Assembly: GCA_038227875.1 (NCBI GenBank) | Contig: JBBRPR010000096.1 | Span: 1-21,583 of the forward strand | Source: Planctomycetota bacterium | Lineage (GTDB): Bacteria > Planctomycetota > SZUA-567 > H5-PLA8 | DNA length: 21,583 nucleotides | Reading direction: 5' to 3' | In this document: one piece after another, positions 1 through 8,615 of the stretch | How positions within the stretch are numbered: the stretch's first letter is position 1 | How the letters are laid out: each line of letters opens with the position of its first letter | The notes under the pieces: model-generated | What the model was told of the DNA's origin: nothing | Database searches by the model: none | The model's input: only the letters and a program-made list of their open reading frames with translations | Made by a program: the position numbers and the translations under genes

Positions 1-887
1 CTGATTTGCGAGGGCGCTGAGTTGGCCCTCGCGCTTGGGCGGCTCATGGATGTCGATGTGGGGCTGCTCGTGCTGTTGAGATAGGCGGGACTCGAAGTCT
101 TCGCGGGTTTGCAGCGGGTGGTGGTGTGGCTGCGCTTCCAAGGTTTGGGTTTGGGCTTGTAGCTCGCGGGGTGGAGGGTGATAGGGGCTTCGTGTTGCTT
201 GATCAACTCTTCCGTGGCGGCTTCAACTTGTTCTTTGACGGTGCGCGTGGGGTCAAAGGGTTTCGGTTGGACTTCTTCGATGGGCTGCGGTGCGGTGACG
301 TTCTTCGGTGTGCCGTCGTCGTGGACGGGGTTGTTCGCCCAAGCGTGAACGTAGTCGGGCTGGAAGCCGGCGCAGGCGCCGGGCTCGGCGCGGTCCCCTT
401 CGGTTCCGGGACGGTCGGCACGGTCGGCACGGTCGCCGGGTTCGCGGTCTTTCGAATGGAAGGAGACTTTTTCGACGGCTTCGGCTTCCTGCAGTTCGGG
501 GAGTTTGTCGTTGAGCAGACTGGTCGGGTTCGGCAGCTTCGCGTTGAAGCCCATCAGGTCCCAGAAGCGTTGCGTGTGGCGGAGGATCGCGGTGCAGCTC
601 AGGCGGCGTTCCATGTCGGTCGTGTTGACCTTCAGGATCATGTGGCGGAGTTGCTGCGCGGAATCGAGTCCGCCTTCGATGAAGGTTTGCGCGGTGAGCT
701 GGACTTGCGTCCGCATGCCAGCCATGTTCTCGCCGACGGTTTTGCTGAGCGCCTGATCGAATGCGGGGATTTTCTTCCAACGGCAGAGGGTCTGGCGGCT
801 GATGTCGAGCTCCTGGGCGATCGAGTTGATGTCTTTTCCCAGCGATAATAGAACGATGGCGCGTTGTTGATTGACGTGCAGGGCCAT
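1..887 (-). CDS. N-terminal helix-turn-helix protein (homeodomain-like / phBC6A51-type HTH) with low-complexity C-terminus; 3' end lies outside the window
   Basis: Translated by hand from ATG at 887: MALHVNQQRAIVLLSLGKDINSIAQELDISRQTLCRWKKIPAFDQAL... The frame stays open to the window edge, so it has no stop and is absent from the ORF track. Strong RBS AAGGAGGAG lies just upstream. IAQELDISRQTLCRWK is a typical HTH. Confidence 0.8.
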   Translation of the reverse strand, partial: MALHVNQQRAIVLLSLGKDINSIAQELDISRQTLCRWKKIPAFDQALSKTVGENMAGMRTQVQLTAQTFIEGGLDSAQQLRHMILKVNTTDMERRLSCTAILRHTQRFWDLMGFNAKLPNPTSLLNDKLPELQEAEAVEKVSFHSKDREPGDRADRADRPGTEGDRAEPGACAGFQPDYVHAWANNPVHDDGTPKNVTAPQPIEEVQPKPFDPTRTVKEQVEAATEELIKQHEAPITLHPASYKPKPKPWKRSHTTTRCKPAKTSSPAYLNSTSSPTSTSMSRPSARANSAPSQI

Positions 888-942
888 GGGTTTCTCCTCC
901 TTATTTTCATCCATCATATTAGGGTTTTGTTCACATGTCAGA

Positions 943-1100: not shown

Positions 1101-1146
1101 GAGTGTGCCACTGGTGGCTTAACGGCTAGCCACCAGTGGCACACTC
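1101..1146. repeat. Perfect 19-bp inverted repeat (REP-like hairpin)
   Basis: GAGTGTGCCACTGGTGGCT (1101-1119), 8-nt loop, AGCCACCAGTGGCACACTC (1128-1146). Lies between divergent genes and has no U-tract. Confidence 0.85.
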
Positions 1147-1218
1147 CGACGGTTCTCATTGCAAGAGAATCGTGATTGTCCAAATTACAAGCGCGGCGTC
1201 CATCTATTTGGCAACAGG

Positions 1219-1247
1219 TTGCTCTGTGGGTGGGGCGGTGGTAATTT
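1219..1247 (+). promoter_or_regulatory. Putative sigma70-type promoter for the E2-like gene
   Basis: TTGCTC-N17-TAATTT with extended -10 TGG. ATG 1257 follows 9 nt later with no SD sequence. Confidence 0.45.
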
Positions 1248-1256
1248 CAAACGTCT

Positions 1257-2267
1257 ATGGAATCCGAATCCGAAACGACTGAACCGACGCCAACGCCGAC
1301 TTCGACGCCTTCACGCTTGCCGCGTGCGCCCGTCGGTCTTCCGCCTGAAGGTCCGCCGGCGATTTCGCCGCGGGCCAGACGGGCGGCAAAGAACATGGAT
1401 GTGCCGCTCCAGGCGCTACCGATTCCCGCGCCGGGTAAACGCATCACCGAACGCGATGTGCTTGCGGCGGCGAAGCAAAGCAAATCCGTTCCGATGACCA
1501 CGGCGGCGCGCAAACTCGCGGCGGCGCGGGGCGTCGATGGGGCGGAGCTCAGCGGTAAGATCAAGCGGCGGCTGAAGAGCCAGGACGTCGCGAAGCTCAA
1601 TCCCGTGGAGCTCCGGCAGCCGGCTGAACGGGTGAAGCTTTCTCACGAAGAACTGGAACACGCGGTGCGTGCGACGACCTTGATTCGCGACGTGCCGCAG
1701 ATTGGCGTCGATGCGTTTCTGCCGCGCGTTCGCGGCGCGGCGCTCGCCCCTTCCCTGCTCCACGCCATCGCGCAGCTGCTCACCGAAGAAACTTTCAAAC
1801 CGTTCCGCGCGGTGCTCGATGGCGACGACTGCGTCTACCGCGGGCAGCTCAACCTGAATTATGTAGCACATCGTGCCGACGGGGCGACGGCCGACAGTCA
1901 CCTCCTGCAAAATACCGAAAAGCTTTCACCCGAGGCCATCGGTGACGTGCTGGCTCAAGCGCCGGTACCATTTGATGCATTGCAAGCGGGAGTGCTGATT
2001 ACGGTCCGGGATTTGAGTGCGCTTCCCGTTGATGGTTTTCGAGCAGAGGTCGAGCCGGGACAGTCGGCAGTGATTACCGTATCGGGGCTGCAATCTCGGA
2101 TGGTGCACAGCGTCGAGCGTGGGGAATGGGTGTTCGAACAGGGATGGCGGATCTATATGGGGGCGGACGCACGAGTGATCACGCCAGAATTGTCAGGATT
2201 TTTTATTTCTCGCCTGAAATCCCGCATCGAGAATCCGTCTACACGTGTACATAATTGTGCAAGTTAG
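1257..2267 (+). CDS. 2-oxoacid dehydrogenase E2 (dihydrolipoamide acyltransferase)-like protein: two E3-binding domains plus a degenerate catalytic domain, no lipoyl domain
   Basis: E3-binding-like motifs ISPRARRAAKNMDV...GKRITERDV and MTTAARKLAAARGVD...RRLKSQDV. The C-terminus IYMGADARVITPELSGFFISRLKSRIENP aligns with canonical LSxDHRxxDGAxxxxFLxxLKxxLENP. Confidence 0.8.
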   Translation: MESESETTEPTPTPTSTPSRLPRAPVGLPPEGPPAISPRARRAAKNMDVPLQALPIPAPGKRITERDVLAAAKQSKSVPMTTAARKLAAARGVDGAELSGKIKRRLKSQDVAKLNPVELRQPAERVKLSHEELEHAVRATTLIRDVPQIGVDAFLPRVRGAALAPSLLHAIAQLLTEETFKPFRAVLDGDDCVYRGQLNLNYVAHRADGATADSHLLQNTEKLSPEAIGDVLAQAPVPFDALQAGVLITVRDLSALPVDGFRAEVEPGQSAVITVSGLQSRMVHSVERGEWVFEQGWRIYMGADARVITPELSGFFISRLKSRIENPSTRVHNCAS

Positions 2268-2312
2268 TGCATTCGGCGCCGTTAGTTTGACAGACGATCA
2301 GCGAGAATGTGA

Positions 2313-2996
2313 ATGAAGAGCGATTTCGAGTTGATGGCGAAGTTCAAGAGCGGCGACCCGGCCGCGTTTCATGCTCTCGCTCGTCGGCACCACGTCTCGG
2401 TTTACAACTTTTTTCTGATGCTCACCGGCCGCGAAACGGCCGCCCAGGAGCTCACCCGCGGCATCTTCGAGCAGCTGGTCGCTGACCGCTACCGCCTGCC
2501 GCTGGAACGGAAGTTTTCGACCAGTCTTTACCGCCTGGGTTACAGCCGCTGGGTGGCGTTTGAACAGTCGGGCGGGAACCGCCGCCACGAACCGGACGCG
2601 CCGGCCACGCAGGAAGCCGACAAGCTGGAACAAATTGCCGCACAAAAGGAATCCTTGCGCTTGCTGGCGCTCTTGCCCCGCGAGCTCAAGTTCCTGATGG
2701 TCTTAAGCGAAACGCTGCGCCTGAGCTTCCGCGAGATCGCCGAGATTCTCGACATCTCCGAAGAAGCGGTGGCGCGCCGCCTGTCCGACACGTACGGAAT
2801 TCTCACCGGCTCACTGCAGCAGCCCGCGCTGGAAGCGCCGAAGATCGTGCCGCCTCCGCCGCGAGCTCAGGCGCAATTGCCGGCGCCGCAGACGCCACTT
2901 CCTTCTGAACCCGTCGTGCCGCCGACACCGGAAGCGGCTTCCAGTGGCGAGTACCCCACAGGAAGTTCTGGCGCCACCGGGGAAAAGGCGGAGTAG
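2313..2996 (+). CDS. ECF (sigma-70 group 4) RNA polymerase sigma factor, divergent, with Pro-rich C-terminal tail
   Basis: SDFELMAKFKSGDPAAFHALARRH is a typical ECF N-terminus. LALLPRELKFLMVLSETLRLSFREIAEILDISEEAVARRL is region 4. The gene sits immediately upstream of an anti-sigma. Confidence 0.85.
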   Translation: MKSDFELMAKFKSGDPAAFHALARRHHVSVYNFFLMLTGRETAAQELTRGIFEQLVADRYRLPLERKFSTSLYRLGYSRWVAFEQSGGNRRHEPDAPATQEADKLEQIAAQKESLRLLALLPRELKFLMVLSETLRLSFREIAEILDISEEAVARRLSDTYGILTGSLQQPALEAPKIVPPPPRAQAQLPAPQTPLPSEPVVPPTPEAASSGEYPTGSSGATGEKAE

Positions 2997-2999
2997 TCC

Positions 3000-4094
3000 A
3001 TGAAATGCTCTGAGAACACCGCCAACCTCGCCGCGTATCTCCATGATGAATTGACGTCGTACGACGAAGACACGTTCCAGCTCCATCTGTCCGTCTGCAT
3101 CGCCTGCCGCGACAAACACGCCAAAGCGCGCGACGTACTGCTCCGATTTCAGCGCACCGTGCCGATGGAACCGTCGGCGATCGCGCGCGAAGACCTGCAC
3201 CGCAGCATCGATGTGGCGTTACGCAAGTCCGGCTCGCAGCCGCCGATCCGATTCCGCGACGGATCGGAAGTGCGCTGGCGCCGCCCGTTTGCCGCGAAGC
3301 CCTTCGCGCTGCCGATGCGCCGCACGCCCGCGCTGCCGGCTCCCGCGGCACCGACTGAAACGCCAGCGAATGCCAACCCGGGCGCGACGCCTGTGCCGAG
3401 CGGGCAGAACGTTCAGAACGCCGACACGCTTTCACCGTCCGCGCGCGTGGTTTCGGCGCGGTTGGAGAGCATCACCCGCCGCCGCAAACGCCTGCGCGTG
3501 CGCCGTGGTTTTTGGATGGCACTGGCCGTCGTCGCGCTGGCCGGTGGAGTCTTCACGTACTGGACCAGCCGCAACACCGCGCGACCGGTCACGCATCCGA
3601 CGATTTCAAAAGAGGAGTGCCTAGCGCGCCAGCGCTGGAACGAACGCCATGCGGCGTTTGAGCGCCAGCACGATGGCGGCGCGTCGCTGCTGATCAACCG
3701 GCAGATCGATCTCACCGGCCAGATCGGCACGACGGCCGTACGCGTCGTACCGCATGTCGACCCGCATTCCGGCGAAAGCTGTCTGGTCATCTACCGCGAG
3801 GAAGATCTCCGCGCGATTTACGCCGACGAGCAGTACGATCCGGCCGCGTTCAAGAAAACCCTGGGCAGCAGCATGGAAGTGGTCCCCGTCAACGGCAACA
3901 TCGCGCTCCCCGCGCAGTGGATTGAGACCTGCGTCGGCGCCGAGAACCGCGTGGTGATCCTGAAGCTGGAAAACCGCCTGGAGTTCTGGTCCTATGCGCG
4001 CCTGGAAAAGTACCTCGCGACGGGACCGACGTTCGACGCGACGGCGAATCTCGCGGTGGTGAATGGGTTGCCTGTTGTAGACCGGCGTTTTTAA
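3000..4094 (+). CDS. zf-HC2 (ZAS) transmembrane anti-sigma factor with a MraZ-like C-terminal domain
   Basis: N-terminal MKC...AYLHDEL...HLSVCIAC (HxxxCxxC), then a Pro/Ala linker, basic run RRRKRLRVRR and TM helix FWMALAVVALAGGVFTYW. Starts 3 nt after the sigma stop. The MraZ-like tail call is less certain than the anti-sigma call. Confidence 0.8.
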   Translation: MKCSENTANLAAYLHDELTSYDEDTFQLHLSVCIACRDKHAKARDVLLRFQRTVPMEPSAIAREDLHRSIDVALRKSGSQPPIRFRDGSEVRWRRPFAAKPFALPMRRTPALPAPAAPTETPANANPGATPVPSGQNVQNADTLSPSARVVSARLESITRRRKRLRVRRGFWMALAVVALAGGVFTYWTSRNTARPVTHPTISKEECLARQRWNERHAAFERQHDGGASLLINRQIDLTGQIGTTAVRVVPHVDPHSGESCLVIYREEDLRAIYADEQYDPAAFKKTLGSSMEVVPVNGNIALPAQWIETCVGAENRVVILKLENRLEFWSYARLEKYLATGPTFDATANLAVVNGLPVVDRRF

Positions 4095-4102
4095 TCTCGC
4101 GA

Positions 4103-4137
4103 AACGGCGGGATTCCCGATTCCCGAATCCCGCTGTT
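4103..4137. terminator. Hairpin between convergent genes, probable (bidirectional) terminator
   Basis: AACGGCGGGATTC / 9-nt loop / GAATCCCGCTGTT (13 bp, one G-U pair) between the stops at 4094 and 4146. U-tract is weak. Confidence 0.55.
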
Positions 4138-4145
4138 AACCAACA

Positions 4146-4718
4146 CTACTCCAACGCCCAAGCATCCGGATCGTGCTTCACCTTGCGTAAATGGTGCGAG
4201 CGGATCTTCATGAAGAATTTGTCATACGTGCCATTCTTATAATCGGGAAATGTGAAAAAGTGGCCCTCCCACGAATCCACGCGGAAACTCATGGTGATTT
4301 CGGCGAATATGCCGTCTCTTAAATAGATCCGGTGCGCGAAGTCTTTGGTCGTGGCGAGCACCAGCTTGGCGCCGGTGACGTAGCCGGCATCAAGGTTGAT
4401 CGGACGCGCGGGCAGCGTTGCTCCAGAGGCAGCGAGCGTGTCTTTCAGCTCGAGTTCCATGCGGTTGGTGGCGAGTTTCCAATCGGCGAGGTCGGCGGGA
4501 TCGCGCAGTTTGCGGAAGGTGAAGAACTGCCGCTTCAACATCGGGCCCATGCTGGCGGTGTAATACTCGGTTTTCTCGAACGGGTAGAGCGGGCTTTCGA
4601 GCTCGATGGGACCGAAAAGATTTTCCAGGGGCGCGCGTGCGGCCTGGAAAAATGCGGCATCGGATGCAAGCATGGCTACCAAAGGTGTCACGCGCCGCGG
4701 AGATCGAAGTTCGCCCAT
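4146..4718 (-). CDS. DUF4416 family protein
   Basis: Characteristic motifs FGPI..S..YPF..TEYY..SMG..LKRQF, RPINLDAGY, LVLATTKDFAHRIYLRDGIFAEIT and FTFPDY. Confidence 0.85.
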   Translation of the reverse strand: MGELRSPRRVTPLVAMLASDAAFFQAARAPLENLFGPIELESPLYPFEKTEYYTASMGPMLKRQFFTFRKLRDPADLADWKLATNRMELELKDTLAASGATLPARPINLDAGYVTGAKLVLATTKDFAHRIYLRDGIFAEITMSFRVDSWEGHFFTFPDYKNGTYDKFFMKIRSHHLRKVKHDPDAWALE

Positions 4719-4843
4719 ATTTCACATTTTAATTTGGGCGGCGCCACTTACCATACCAAGTTGAAAGACTGTCGAACCTTCGATGCCGTTGGTCATCCGA
4801 TACATTCAAGGTTCGAAATCTTTTAGAGGAGCTTGCCCTGAGC

Positions 4844-6730
4844 TTGTCGAAGGAGTTTGATTTGATTACGCAACGCGCCCGGTTTACCGGGTTGCTTTTC
4901 GTCACGCTGCTTTCCATGACGGTCTTGAACGCGAGCGATGCGCCCGAGACCACACCCCCAGCCACCGCGCCCGCACCGAGTGCGGATGCACCGAAAGCCC
5001 CCAGCGACCTGCAGCGCCTGATCGCGGCAACTGGCACCGAGCCGCTGTGCGTCGTCGGCGTTCAAGACGTCAAGACGCTGCCGGAACGATTCGCGAAAAC
5101 GAATCTCAGCCAGATGCTCATCGACCCCACCTACGAAAAAGGGCTCACGACCATCAAGGGGCTGTTGAATGACAATTCCGGCGTGGAATTGAAGGAGTTC
5201 CTCACGCGCGCCGTGAAATTCATTGACGGACCCGCCGCTATTGTGGTGTCTGCCGGGCCCGATGGCATCGCTTACACCGCCTACGTTCAGGCCAAAAGCG
5301 AAGGATCGGCCAAGCAACTCGCTTCGATCTGGCCGGACGTGAAGGATCCCGGTCAGCTTTTTTCCGTGCTGAAGCTCAAGGCCCTGCTGGCCAAGGACCT
5401 GCCCGACGCGACAGCGGCGCTGCCGGATTGGGCCAGCAAGAATTTTCCCGACGGCGACGTCGCCATCATCGTCTCCCCGCGCAAAATGGTGAAGGCTCTC
5501 GAGAAGGCCATCGCCGACAACAAGCTGGATTCCAAAGCCAAGCCGCAGGCGCTGGCGGAGATTGAGCAGACGGGCATTGAGCGCCTGGCGCTGGGCATCG
5601 CCATCGACGGCGAATCGTTCACGGACAATCTGACTCTGGACCTGGCTCCCGATGCCGACAACACATTCACGCATGTCATCACCGCGCTGAAGGAAAAGCC
5701 GAAAGGCTGGGATTCGCTGCTGGCGGCGATGCCGTCCGATGGCGACTTGGTGGTGCTGATGCAGTCGGATCTGAAAGCGGTGAGCGCAGATCTGCCGTTT
5801 GCGATTCAGCCGCTGGAACGCTACCTGCGCGGAAAACGCTGGGCTAAAAAGGTGGGAATCACGTCGGAAGCACTGGACCCCAAGCGCTTCGATTTTCTGG
5901 TCAATCATCTGCACGGAGAACTGGGCATTTCCGCCAAGCCCACGCTGACGGCCGAATTGCATCTCTGCGTGGCCGGAGCGCTGAAGCCCGGCGAAACCGA
6001 CGCGGTCCGCGACGATTTCGTGAAGGGTTTGAATTCCCTGAGTGCCACGTTCGAAACGCTGCAGGGCGTGCCCAAGATCGGCAACAATGCGCCGCTGGGC
6101 GCGCAGTTTCAGGGACGAGGGATTTTCACCGCGCCGGTGATCGGCCTGAGCCCCGGCTGGTCGTGGCTCTGCTCGAATCTCGCGACGTATCAGGAATTGA
6201 CTTCGTCCCTGGCGAAAGGCCGCACGCTGGCCAATGCGTTCAAGAATGAAACAGCCCGATTGAATGCCGGCGGCGCCAAGGTGGAGCTCTGGCATCCGGA
6301 AGACGCGCTGCGCGTGCAGATCAGCCTCGAACGGGTGGTGCAACTTGCGTACACGGCGTGGCTGCTTTCCGGCGAGGACGGCCCGTTCATCGCCGGCTGG
6401 CGCGTGCCGTCGGACATGCTTCCGCCACCGCAGCTTTTCCAGGGGCGACTGGGCAGTCTGCGCGTGGGGCTGAGCCGCTCGGGGCGCACACTTTCTAGCT
6501 ACTCGCACTGCTCGATTCCCGGCGTCTCGGGGCTCTCCGTGCTGTTGATGGGTGAGTTGTCCAACGCGGTGGAAGACGGCCGCGACTTCGCGAAGAATCC
6601 GCCGCCGCCCGCGCCCGATCGGCCTGCGACGGTGAAGCAGAAAAAGAAAGCCGCCAAGGAAGACGCTGATCCGGCAATGGGCGATGACGAGACCAAGCAA
6701 GCCGCGAAGCCCAAGGGAGATCAGCCGTAA
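4844..6730 (+). CDS. Secreted hypothetical protein (628 aa)
   Basis: Long ORF with GC3-type codon bias. Signal-peptide-like RARFTGLLFVTLLSMTVLNA-SD followed by a Pro-rich linker; charged C-terminal tail. TTG start with GAGGAG upstream; exact start uncertain. Confidence 0.75.
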   Translation: MSKEFDLITQRARFTGLLFVTLLSMTVLNASDAPETTPPATAPAPSADAPKAPSDLQRLIAATGTEPLCVVGVQDVKTLPERFAKTNLSQMLIDPTYEKGLTTIKGLLNDNSGVELKEFLTRAVKFIDGPAAIVVSAGPDGIAYTAYVQAKSEGSAKQLASIWPDVKDPGQLFSVLKLKALLAKDLPDATAALPDWASKNFPDGDVAIIVSPRKMVKALEKAIADNKLDSKAKPQALAEIEQTGIERLALGIAIDGESFTDNLTLDLAPDADNTFTHVITALKEKPKGWDSLLAAMPSDGDLVVLMQSDLKAVSADLPFAIQPLERYLRGKRWAKKVGITSEALDPKRFDFLVNHLHGELGISAKPTLTAELHLCVAGALKPGETDAVRDDFVKGLNSLSATFETLQGVPKIGNNAPLGAQFQGRGIFTAPVIGLSPGWSWLCSNLATYQELTSSLAKGRTLANAFKNETARLNAGGAKVELWHPEDALRVQISLERVVQLAYTAWLLSGEDGPFIAGWRVPSDMLPPPQLFQGRLGSLRVGLSRSGRTLSSYSHCSIPGVSGLSVLLMGELSNAVEDGRDFAKNPPPPAPDRPATVKQKKKAAKEDADPAMGDDETKQAAKPKGDQP

Positions 6731-6731
6731 A

Positions 6732-8615
6732 ATGCTCCCGCGCATTCTGCTGATCGTCACACTGCTGCTGGTCTTTCTCCTTGCCATGCAAGGGTGCAAT
6801 CCCGGCATGGACTACTACACGTCCATGCAGGTTCAGAAGCTGGACGGGCAGTCGTATCTGATACTCGAAAACATGGCCTCGACGGCCGAGGGCTCCGAAC
6901 CGTATTTCAGCATCTACAAACCCGGCGACAATGGCCCTGTCGAATGGAAGCCGGTGACCACCGATCGTCTTGGCCACGCATTGGGAATTTTCCGCGTGAA
7001 GGTGGCTGAACCGGCCGCGGCGGTCACACCTCCGGCACGGGCTGGCGTGACGCCACCCAGAAGCGAAACACCGATTTCAGAAATTCAGCCGGTCACCATC
7101 GACAATCCGCCGGCCAAGACAGAAACACCGCCCGCGCCGGCGGCACCCGCGTCTCAAATGCGCCTCGGCATCTTTCACGGCGACAACGGCTCCACACGCA
7201 TTGACCTCGCGGCGACTCCGCCCACATCGACCTACAAGCGTGTCGACTTCAATTGGATTCCGCTGACCACGTCGGAACTCAACGGCGTAACCTACGCGTT
7301 CGGCGTCGATCGCTTCGAGGCGAATGACAAACGCACGGAAGCACCGCTCCGCGTCGCGCGGCTGAATGGCGAGACGTGGACCGATCTGAATCTCTCCGGC
7401 CCGGCGGTGAAGCTCAACACGCTCAAAGCATTTTCGCTCGACGCACTGGCCTTGAGTTCCGGAATCAAAGTGCTCTGGCGCAATGCCGTGGAAGATCCCG
7501 GCCTGCTGGAAGGACCGCGCTACACCACGGACGGGCCGCTGGCCATGGTCTCGTTCGACGGCAAGGATTTTGAAAAGAATCCCGCGGAAGAGGGCAAAGA
7601 CGCCAGCGTAAAGATTATCAACGTGTCCAAGCTGCCCAAGGGCAACGCTTCGCTCTGGGTGGAGCAGAACGAAATCCACGCGCTGATCCAGACCCGCCCG
7701 AAAGACGAGCAGTCGTTGTCGATGAACAGCCCGATGGAAATCTGGACCATCCAGGCGGACGGTGAAACGAAGATGGTCGAGCGGATCGAAGGCTCGCAGA
7801 GCAAGCCGGGCCTGATGGCGTTCATTGCCGCCGAACATTTCACTGACAAGGGGCAGGAGTACATCCTGCGCTCGAACTGGCAGAATTTTGAAGTGTGGCA
7901 GCGCGTCGAAGGCACCTTCAAGATGATCCGCGCCAATCCGCCGGGTCTGCCGACGTACGATCTCGAGTCGGTGCTCTGGACGGGACTGGCTGGAGCCGGT
8001 GCGCTGGTCTTATTCGGCGCGTTCCTGGCGTGGCGGCGCCGTCAGGCGTGGACGCTGATGCGCCGCATCCAGGCGCATGAAATCTATGCCACCGTCGGTT
8101 CGCGGACGGGTGCGTACCTGGTGGATCTCGCCATCATTGTTGGAGGCGCTGTGCTGTACAGCCGCCTCCGCGGATCGTACGCCAGCCCGTTCGAAATGGT
8201 CTTTCTCGATTTCTCGAAGTTGCCCTACTGGCCGTTCTTCGTCATCTACATGCTTTATTTTTCGCTGGCCGAATGGCTCTTCGGCACGACGGCCGGAAAA
8301 CTTCTGATGGGACTTTGCGTGGTGATGGATGGCGGGCAGAAGCTGTCGCTGACGTCAGCGGTGATTCGCAATCTCGTCGGATTCGTGGAGCGTATTCCAC
8401 AAATTGTGCTGGTGGTCGTCTGGCCGATGATTCTGCTGACGCCGCGGCGCCAGCGGCTGGGCGATATGCTCTCGCGCTCATTTGTGGTCCACAAAAGCGC
8501 GCTCGATATTTTCAAGCAGCAGCGCGACCAGGAACTGGCGAAGTTGCGCAGCGAAGCGCTCTCCAGCGGCGCGTTGGCGGGCAAATCCGACGAAACCAAG
8601 GACGGCAAGCCGTAA
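6732..8615 (+). CDS. RDD family membrane protein with a large N-terminal extracytoplasmic domain (probable lipoprotein)
   Basis: ATG 6732 lies 1 nt after the upstream stop. MLPRILLIVTLLLVFLLAMQG-C is lipobox-like. C-terminal RDD motifs: YATVGSRTGAYLVD, GTTAGKLLMGLCVV, IRNL, RRQRLGDMLSRSFVV. Confidence 0.85.
   Translation: MLPRILLIVTLLLVFLLAMQGCNPGMDYYTSMQVQKLDGQSYLILENMASTAEGSEPYFSIYKPGDNGPVEWKPVTTDRLGHALGIFRVKVAEPAAAVTPPARAGVTPPRSETPISEIQPVTIDNPPAKTETPPAPAAPASQMRLGIFHGDNGSTRIDLAATPPTSTYKRVDFNWIPLTTSELNGVTYAFGVDRFEANDKRTEAPLRVARLNGETWTDLNLSGPAVKLNTLKAFSLDALALSSGIKVLWRNAVEDPGLLEGPRYTTDGPLAMVSFDGKDFEKNPAEEGKDASVKIINVSKLPKGNASLWVEQNEIHALIQTRPKDEQSLSMNSPMEIWTIQADGETKMVERIEGSQSKPGLMAFIAAEHFTDKGQEYILRSNWQNFEVWQRVEGTFKMIRANPPGLPTYDLESVLWTGLAGAGALVLFGAFLAWRRRQAWTLMRRIQAHEIYATVGSRTGAYLVDLAIIVGGAVLYSRLRGSYASPFEMVFLDFSKLPYWPFFVIYMLYFSLAEWLFGTTAGKLLMGLCVVMDGGQKLSLTSAVIRNLVGFVERIPQIVLVVVWPMILLTPRRQRLGDMLSRSFVVHKSALDIFKQQRDQELAKLRSEALSSGALAGKSDETKDGKP

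Follow-up and report, generated by a model that had tools for sequence, protein, structure and literature searches.

Contig JBBRPR010000096.1 of a Planctomycetota bacterium (SZUA-567; H5-PLA8; assembly GCA_038227875.1), analysed here as a window of 21,583 nucleotides, carries three genes at positions 1257 to 4094. They encode a pseudoenzyme related to the E2 subunit of 2-oxoacid dehydrogenase complexes, a diverged extracytoplasmic function (ECF) sigma factor, and an anti-sigma factor with an outer domain of the MraZ fold. With moderate confidence, the second and third genes are interpreted as a lineage-specific ECF sigma/anti-sigma pair with a new type of sensor domain, placed directly behind an orphan E2 paralogue; judging from the arrangement of the genes, the E2-like gene and the pair are probably co-transcribed, and probably do not form an obligate physical three-part switch. 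The first-pass annotation, made from the DNA sequence alone, had proposed a regulatory module of three parts. The genes are real and often linked, but two relatives (G003 and G008) and a sister clade of sigma factors argue against an obligate three-part system, and an undescribed system of that kind is retained as a minority reading of low probability.

The window is contig C96 of the host genome (G000), which comprises 9.3 Mb in 176 contigs and is 88% complete. The co-orientation and the spacing of the three genes, as first annotated, agree with the coordinates of the open reading frames (ORFs), all of which are intact: 45 nt separate the E2-like gene from the sigma factor gene, and 3 nt separate the latter from the anti-sigma factor gene. 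The features of the three genes are as follows.

1257..2267, + strand: E2-like pseudoenzyme gene, 336 aa, encoding a disordered N-terminus, two helical units resembling the peripheral subunit-binding domain (PSBD), and a dead core of the CAT fold
1362..1463, + strand: PSBD 1, residues 36-69 (Pfam E3_binding PF02817, 28.6 bits, cut-off 23.7)
1494..1601, + strand: second PSBD-like unit, residues ~80-115, which aligns to the second PSBD of the canonical E2 P0009
2007..2009, + strand: Arg251 at the catalytic Ser/Thr position of (T/S)xSNLG, from alignment columns (SNLG replaced by RDLS)
2166..2174, + strand: D304-A305-R306 in place of the DHR of DHRxxDG, from alignment with canonical E2s (His replaced by Ala305)
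2268..2312, + strand: spacer of 45 nt between the E2-like and sigma factor genes, in which a terminator scan called none
2313..2996, + strand: ECF-type sigma factor gene of a diverged subclade, 227 aa; the C-terminal tail of the product, from about residue 170, is rich in proline and not conserved
3000..4094, + strand: gene for a single-pass class I zinc-binding anti-sigma (ZAS, RsiW-like) factor with a C-terminal MraZ-fold domain, 364 aa
3084..3107, + strand: ZAS zinc-binding motif H29-x3-C33-x2-C36 (HxxxCxxC is shared by 25 of the 28 family members, among them the window protein)
3507..3563, + strand: predicted transmembrane helix, residues 170-188, a hydrophobic 19-mer
3636..4034, + strand: MraZ-fold domain, residues ~213-345, predicted to be extracytoplasmic (AlphaFold2 (AF2) model, pLDDT 92.6)

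The anti-sigma factor and its outer domain

The boldest claim of the first-pass annotation, that the anti-sigma factor carries a MraZ-like outer domain, is upheld by both structure and profile comparison. Foldseek matched the C-terminal domain to 13 structures with E values of 0.001 or lower. Every one of the ten that were listed is a MraZ protein (Foldseek E 1e-5 for MraZ; template-modelling (TM) scores of 0.5-0.6), and the next listed match has an E value of 0.13. The VIA-wide aligner matched 120 of 141 residues to MraZ 1n0e_A (Z 11.0, root-mean-square deviation 5.2), with a runner-up at Z 5.0, and positions 222-313 of the family profile match the same MraZ at E 3.9e-4. The predicted model shows a two-repeat swapped-hairpin ('cradle-like') barrel in one chain. 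Pfam MraZ (PF02381) is touched by six of 28 relatives at E <= 0.1, the best at 5.4e-4.

According to passages of PMC12957436, MraZ binds DNA via a DXXXR motif, and the contact needs Lys13, Arg15 and Arg86, located on a positively charged surface. From the alignment columns, this motif is lost in both repeats of the anti-sigma family. The column equivalent to Asp contains D in none of the 28 members, the column equivalent to Arg contains K or R in 14 of them and Asn in the window, and Gln occupies the equivalent column of repeat 1 in 14 of 28. Against D-x-x-G-R in the host's own MraZ, which is separately encoded on contig C12, the hhalign alignment places V-N-G-N of the window protein. The domain is also acidic: it carries a net negative charge in 21 of 28 members (-5 in the window).

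The remainder of the protein resembles RsiW. Residues 1-74 of the family profile match RsiW (5wuq_C) at E 1e-7, RslA is matched at E 7.7e-5, and the N-terminus also matches ChrR and RsrA. The window protein on its own falls under the cut-off of NCBIfam NF052375 (E 1.8e-8) and scores 15.4 against a cut-off of 22.2 for zf-HC2. All 28 members possess a hydrophobic 19-mer (mean Kyte-Doolittle 1.57-2.82), and the flank on its N-terminal side is the richer in Lys and Arg in 25 of 28. Because eight Lys or Arg residues are found in the 15 residues before the window helix and two in the 15 after it, the N-terminus is predicted to be inside and the C-terminal domain outside the cytoplasm.

The family is narrow. 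Among 1.84 billion proteins, the C-terminal 164 residues found 27 cluster representatives, nearly all of 280-370 aa, and a search of the ESM Atlas with this domain gave no usable match. Within the class, the domain turned up in 10 of 62 genomes; a sample of 401 genomes from the phylum gave eight matches, none of them outside this class (among the genomes counted for the order and the class is G017, which is unpublished and gave no match). Variants of the architecture occur: in P0037 (443 aa) the ZAS domain and a single transmembrane helix are followed by a tandem pair of MraZ-like domains, and G024 and G026 (family f5) encode a ZAS and MraZ-like protein of 463-466 aa. In G024 the ORFs immediately preceding this gene have no Pfam match, and these two genomes are excluded from the synteny counts below.

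The sigma factor

The first-pass annotation had described the sigma factor as lacking the usual motifs of regions 2 and 4.2, which is half right. No match to Pfam PF04542 (region 2) was found in the window protein at E <= 0.1, it scores 29.5 against a cut-off of 42.9 for TIGR02937, and both regions are degenerate in comparison with close canonical orthologues. Region 4.2 remains recognisable, with a score for Sigma70_r4_2 (PF08281) of 30.7 bits, above the cut-off of 25.7, and over residues 1-80 each column has its counterpart in orthologues with Sigma70_r2 scores of 60-62 bits (G002 and G004, the two that were scanned). The orthologues in G002, G004, G006, G007, G012 and G014 are canonical and nearly uniform, with AEDLTQEVFLRLY and RNCWIDYLRR, whereas in the four sigma factors that are linked to an E2 or E2-like gene (those of the window, G001, L020 and L022) the linkers are variable and Y-x-x-W replaces RNCW. 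By alignment, then, the window protein is a member of a distinct, fast-evolving ECF subclade and not a non-sigma protein. Comparison with PDB sequences gave only a chance-level helix-turn-helix (HTH) match (E 0.0094).

The E2-like pseudoenzyme

The absence of a lipoyl domain and of the catalytic His, both noted in the first-pass annotation, was confirmed, and the catalytic Ser is replaced as well. No match to Biotin_lipoyl (PF00364) was found in the protein at E <= 0.1, its first 90 residues contain no motif resembling that of the lipoyl Lys, and the PSBD begins about 35 residues from the start. The outgroup and the live members of the family read DHR and SNLG in the columns where the window protein has DAR and RDLS. 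The His of DHR and the Ser/Thr of SNLG are the positions that we take to be catalytic; the titles of PDB entries 1dpb, 1dpc and 1dpd, which are among the Foldseek matches, name Ser558, His610 and Asn614. Lacking the lipoyl arm, the catalytic His and the catalytic Ser, the protein cannot carry out acyl transfer. It has no signal peptide and is therefore assigned to the cytoplasm.

Its relationship to E2 is clear from structure. In the AF2 model (pLDDT 76.6), the best Foldseek matches are all E2 cores or cores of the E3-binding protein (E3BP), with E values from 7.6e-14 to 1e-11 and TMt of 0.6-0.7. Pfam 2-oxoacid_dh (PF00198) matches residues 245-329 (29.4 bits, cut-off 23), corresponding to profile positions 147-229 only, the last third. 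The second PSBD-like unit is modelled as helices 82-91, 96-102 and 108-112; a separate Pfam stretch was not reported for it. PSBD 1 is the most conserved part of the protein, with 22/45 invariant columns in residues 28-72 against 23/45 in residues 120-320 (8-row family alignment), and its SPRARR motif is invariant across the family.

The His, the Ser and the lipoyl-Lys motif were scored in 16 family rows (the partial G019 and one G007 row were left out). All three are missing from 12 rows and all three are kept in four: G001, G018, P0007 and L020. The protein of G008 has a lipoyl-like domain according to Pfam, yet its motif reads DYR. Where live members have the His, the dead ones vary between A, E, Q, R and Y, as expected of a site freed from constraint. 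In a maximum-likelihood tree, from which partial G019 was left out, the 12 dead rows and three live rows form a single 15-member clade (100/100 support) separate from canonical E2s, a topology compatible with one or two losses of the catalytic features. By NG86, the ratio of nonsynonymous to synonymous substitution rates (dN/dS) was estimated at 0.16 between the dead members L021 and L022 and at 0.25 between the live members G001 and L020; both values are only rough because dS, at 1.3-1.6 (1.3-2.9 overall), is near saturation. The argument of the first-pass annotation against decay is thereby extended, since the frames are intact and the dead clade is under purifying selection; simple decay does not account for the E2-like gene. 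We infer that the protein is a maintained pseudoenzyme whose conserved function sits in its subunit-binding domain.

No E1 or E3 gene adjoins the E2-like gene of the window. The host genome encodes canonical E2 proteins elsewhere, including one of 423 aa on contig C2 that has DHR and adjoins an E1-beta-like gene, and three E3-type proteins. It also contains further unusual paralogues. Another lipoyl-less E2-like protein, of 286 aa and encoded on contig C9 (L017:973-1830), may be a second pseudo-E2, since its catalytic motif is DRR. In a 372-aa paralogue on C12 (L016:1489-2604) the motif reads DHA. On C7 (L014:1498-3628) the E2 is split into a 436-aa E1-beta-like protein ending in a lipoyl-like segment and, following it, a 288-aa core that is lipoyl-less and keeps DHR.

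Linkage across relatives

The loci compared came partly from a scan of genome contigs (one locus, on the same contig as G003) and a scan of metagenomes (three short loci). An E2 or E2-like gene is followed by the sigma factor gene within about 25-45 nt in four of the six loci for which downstream DNA was available, those of the window, G001, L020 and L022. The synteny is thus conserved in part, but G003 and G008 lack the pair and the sister clade lacks the E2-like gene. The four loci account for every member of the diverged sigma subclade with known context, at identities of 31-40% among their E2-like proteins. The order of sigma factor and anti-sigma factor is also found in G001, G002, G004, G006, G007, G012 and G014. 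In G003 and G008 the gene for a secreted tetratricopeptide repeat (TPR) protein, the E2-like gene and, adjoining it, the convergent DUF4416 gene are kept and the sigma pair is absent; the anti-sigma factor has no match anywhere in G003 (86% complete) and, in G008 (89% complete), just a weak one to the N-terminus. The sister sigma/anti-sigma clade is represented in six genomes, in none of which an E2-like gene is a neighbour, and in two of them (G002 and G004) the pair lies within 1-4 kb of DUF4416.

The slot immediately upstream of the sigma factor is not always occupied by a pseudoenzyme. In G001 and L020 it contains a fully equipped E2 with the lipoyl Lys, Ser and His, so the linkage does not depend on the pseudo state. 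In four genomes with the canonical pair, the slot held by the E2 or E2-like gene in the window's subclade is filled by a co-oriented gene for a protein of 229-247 aa with a partial match to GGDEF, directly upstream of the sigma factor gene.

L073:6143-6844 (G002): degenerate GGDEF-like gene
L072:6989-7675 (G014): degenerate GGDEF-like gene
L071:8723-9463 (G006): degenerate GGDEF-like gene
L074:9230-9952 (G012): degenerate GGDEF-like gene

The secreted TPR gene precedes the E2 or E2-like gene in L020, L022, L003, L004, L021 and G008. In the host genome its orthologue has relocated to contig C21, and the upstream gene in G001 is a different one. Downstream of the pair, the genes for DUF4416, for a protein of 628 aa that matches no family and for a 643-aa RDD membrane protein are in the same order in the window (4146-8615) and in G008 (L077), with 38-58% identity, and FUR and GT2 genes are nearby in both genomes. 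Since these unrelated genes are also syntenic in G008, inherited gene order explains part of the linkage.

Transcription signals were compared over few upstream sequences. The putative promoter ahead of the E2-like gene in the first-pass annotation is unsupported: the scan found three sigma-70-like matches, compared with 1.2 +/- 1.0 in shuffled sequences. One weak match (TCGAGA-17-CATAAT, 2227-2255) overlaps the 3' end of the E2-like gene. The hexamer ATGATA, which resembles a -10 element, embeds the stop codon of the E2 gene in G001, L020 and L022 (L070:8460-8572, L020:2200-2340 and L022:2020-2160, respectively). This hexamer, or CATAAT at 2250-2255 in the window, may be part of an internal promoter.

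Proposed function and alternatives

If the three genes work as their families suggest, the cytoplasmic zinc-binding domain of the anti-sigma factor would hold the sigma factor in the manner of RsiW, with one helix spanning the membrane. The outer double swapped-hairpin barrel of MraZ type, having no DNA-binding motif, might be a module for sensing, for binding a partner or for gating a protease. Perception of a signal would trigger regulated proteolysis that frees the sigma factor, as in other members of the family; genes for M50 site-2 proteases are present in the host genome, and no site-1 protease was identified. The E2-like protein is most likely E3BP-like, an adaptor or structural subunit that would bind E3 or E1 or join an E2 core. 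Its link to the pair would most likely be one of co-expression, the E2-like gene belonging to the same operon or regulon.

Several observations weigh against this interpretation of the locus. An alignment of 30 rows underlies the AF2 model from which the fold of the outer domain is taken; searched by itself, the window protein reaches Pfam MraZ only at E 0.078 (13.4 bits, cut-off 23), and hhalign gives the family a probability of 17% (E 0.0014) of matching the host's own MraZ. The topology is predicted from hydrophobicity and charge alone, and the window helix, at 1.57, has the lowest Kyte-Doolittle value of the 28 members. The near-saturation of dS bears on the selection estimates, the E3BP-like role is an analogy only, and a gene order conserved within one family may reflect descent alone.

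Among the alternatives, a true three-component system (four with the TPR protein) is considered unlikely. In such a system an E2-derived oligomer bearing the PSBD would act directly on the sigma factor or on the cytoplasmic part of the anti-sigma factor, tying release of the sigma factor to the state of 2-oxoacid dehydrogenase subunits or to lipoyl or acyl-CoA status. The adjacency in all four members of the sigma subclade with known context despite the divergence of their E2-like proteins, the recurrent TPR-E2 order, the purifying selection on the dead clade and the co-variation of the sigma subclade with linkage all favour it. Weighing against it are the loci in G003 and G008, where the E2-like gene occurs without the pair, the six genomes whose sister clade does without the E2-like gene, and the active-looking E2 in the slot of G001 and L020. 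No fusion of E2-like and sigma domains was found among the longer proteins searched, which is weak evidence, and the synteny within a single family may be plain inheritance. Moreover, the E2-like protein and the MraZ-like domain cannot touch, because the former is cytoplasmic and the latter is predicted to be outside the membrane. More doubtful still is an elaborate version in which the TPR, E2 or E2-like, sigma and anti-sigma genes would constitute an envelope-to-metabolism module, with the PSBD-bearing scaffold acting directly on the pair in the cytoplasm, so that release of the sigma factor would be coupled to dehydrogenase-complex subunits; the exapted MraZ barrel outside the membrane would do the sensing, and its input may be the secreted TPR protein.

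The opposite alternative, that there is no functional relation at all, is also given a low probability. The E2-like gene would serve a dehydrogenase complex, the sigma pair would respond to an unrelated envelope signal, each would have its own promoter, and their proximity would be inherited synteny around DUF4416. The conserved gene order in G008 is consistent with this, as are the loci of G002 and G004, where the pair lies close to DUF4416 and has no E2-like neighbour, the sigma-70-like match just ahead of the sigma factor gene, and the G+C content at third codon positions of the E2-like gene (1257-2264), which is 0.65, below the 0.72-0.80 of its five neighbours. Against it are the very short gaps, the shared orientation and the lack of a called terminator, as well as the persistence of the adjacency through relocation of the TPR gene in the host genome and, in G001, next to a different upstream gene. 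Very improbable is a membrane-tethered transcription factor with a cytoplasmic, DNA-binding MraZ-like domain in addition to the anti-sigma domain: its fold belongs to a DNA-binding regulator and K or R persists at the Arg-equivalent position in half of the members, but a single hydrophobic segment with a charge bias of 8 to 2 separates this domain from an anti-sigma domain that must be cytoplasmic, DXXXR is in neither repeat, and the domain is acidic where MraZ requires a positive surface.

Flanking DNA and assembly

The three genes are contiguous. A single contig from the probable source run covers 1140-4800 with no differences, and a contig from an independent run (X2, record 13) bridges the junction of the E2-like and sigma factor genes (2237-2467) with 0 differences. 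How the genes connect to the initial 1.1 kb of this sequence is less certain because the path crosses a repeat: to the left of about 1140 the public contigs of the probable source run are fragmented, with a summed depth of 304 at position 1130. Other features of the flanking DNA are as follows.

3..917, - strand: gene running off the contig end, with an IS630/HTH-like N-terminus (NF033545, E 1.1e-4; HTH_Tnp_1_2 just below cut-off)
1101..1146, no strand: perfect inverted repeat with 19-nt arms (100% complementary) and an 8-nt loop, ~110 nt upstream of the E2-like start
4103..4137, no strand: hairpin between the convergent anti-sigma factor and DUF4416 genes, with 13-nt arms (4103-4115 and 4125-4137) that are 92% complementary
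4146..4718, - strand: DUF4416 gene (Pfam E 7.5e-50), a convergent neighbour conserved in this region of relatives

The hairpin had been described as terminator-like; it is real, but it has no T-run and was not called by the terminator scan. The 19-nt arm of the palindrome at 1101-1146 has 44 matches in the host genome at <=2 mismatches, compared with 0 for a reversed control, and by this measure the palindrome is a dispersed repeat, like the terminal repeat of a miniature inverted-repeat transposable element. Elsewhere in the genome, + and - copies of the arm are often 160-360 nt apart, much as terminal inverted repeats are in small non-autonomous elements. Taken with this repeat, the gene at 3-917, the remainder of which is low-complexity and rich in proline and arginine, points to displacement of the TPR gene by mobile DNA.

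Comparison with known systems

RsiW, which controls SigW in Bacillus subtilis (PDB 5wuq), is a class I zinc-binding, single-pass anti-sigma factor that is released by regulated proteolysis. The anti-sigma factor of the window shares with it the HxxxCxxC N-terminal domain, the single transmembrane helix and a gene position directly after the ECF sigma factor gene, and the host genome has M50 genes. It differs in its outer domain, a MraZ-type barrel unrelated to that of RsiW, and its proteolytic release is presumed.

MraZ (PF02381; PDB 1n0e, 9qlg and 9r4j) is a DNA-binding regulator that heads the dcw cluster, and the swapped-hairpin barrel of the MraZ/AbrB type is known as a cytoplasmic DNA-binding module. 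The domain of the window protein has the whole two-repeat barrel in common with MraZ and a weak, recurrent similarity in sequence. Unlike MraZ, it follows an anti-sigma domain and a membrane helix in one fusion protein, with a predicted location outside the cell; it is acidic, without DXXXR, below the Pfam cut-off and not located at the dcw cluster. An anti-sigma factor with such an outer domain was not described in the publications covered by full-text searches, and MraZ is not mentioned in the main texts of the ECF reclassification and of the class I anti-sigma survey; nor did the literature searches and main-text look-ups find a published description of the E2-like part or of the three-gene locus, although the supplement of the reclassification, outside their scope, might list such a domain. 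The apparent recruitment of a complete MraZ-type barrel as an extracytoplasmic anti-sigma domain would widen the uses of the fold and add a class of ECF sensors. Because the anti-sigma family is narrow (27 representatives, one class), the reach of this finding is limited unless the mechanism is general.

The E2-like protein differs from a canonical bacterial E2, such as the 423-aa E2 on C2, in lacking all three catalytic features and in not adjoining E1 or E3 genes; both have the PSBD and the CAT-like core fold, and live members of its own clade (G001, P0007 and L020) keep the lipoyl Lys, SNLG and DHR. In passages of PMC10156792, the missing catalytic His separates animal E3BP from E2, and E3BP is characterized by an E2-like topology, an E3-specific PSBD and an inactive core; a PSBD shared by E1 and E3 is described there as the bacterial state, and no bacterial E3BP is named in those passages. 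Like eukaryotic E3BP (protein X), the window protein is an E2 paralogue with a PSBD and a core without the catalytic His, and its best Foldseek match is the core-binding domain of a fungal E3BP (7r5m_A, E 7.6e-14), with E2 cores nearly equal. It differs from E3BP in being a bacterial protein of a planctomycete orphan-E2 clade, with no lipoyl domain and with two PSBD-like units, and is not its orthologue because the tree places it within a bacterial clade. The family thus offers a bacterial pseudoenzyme series that parallels E3BP, in which the lipoyl arm, the His and the Ser were lost together, the PSBD is under purifying selection, and live and dead forms coexist in one clade.

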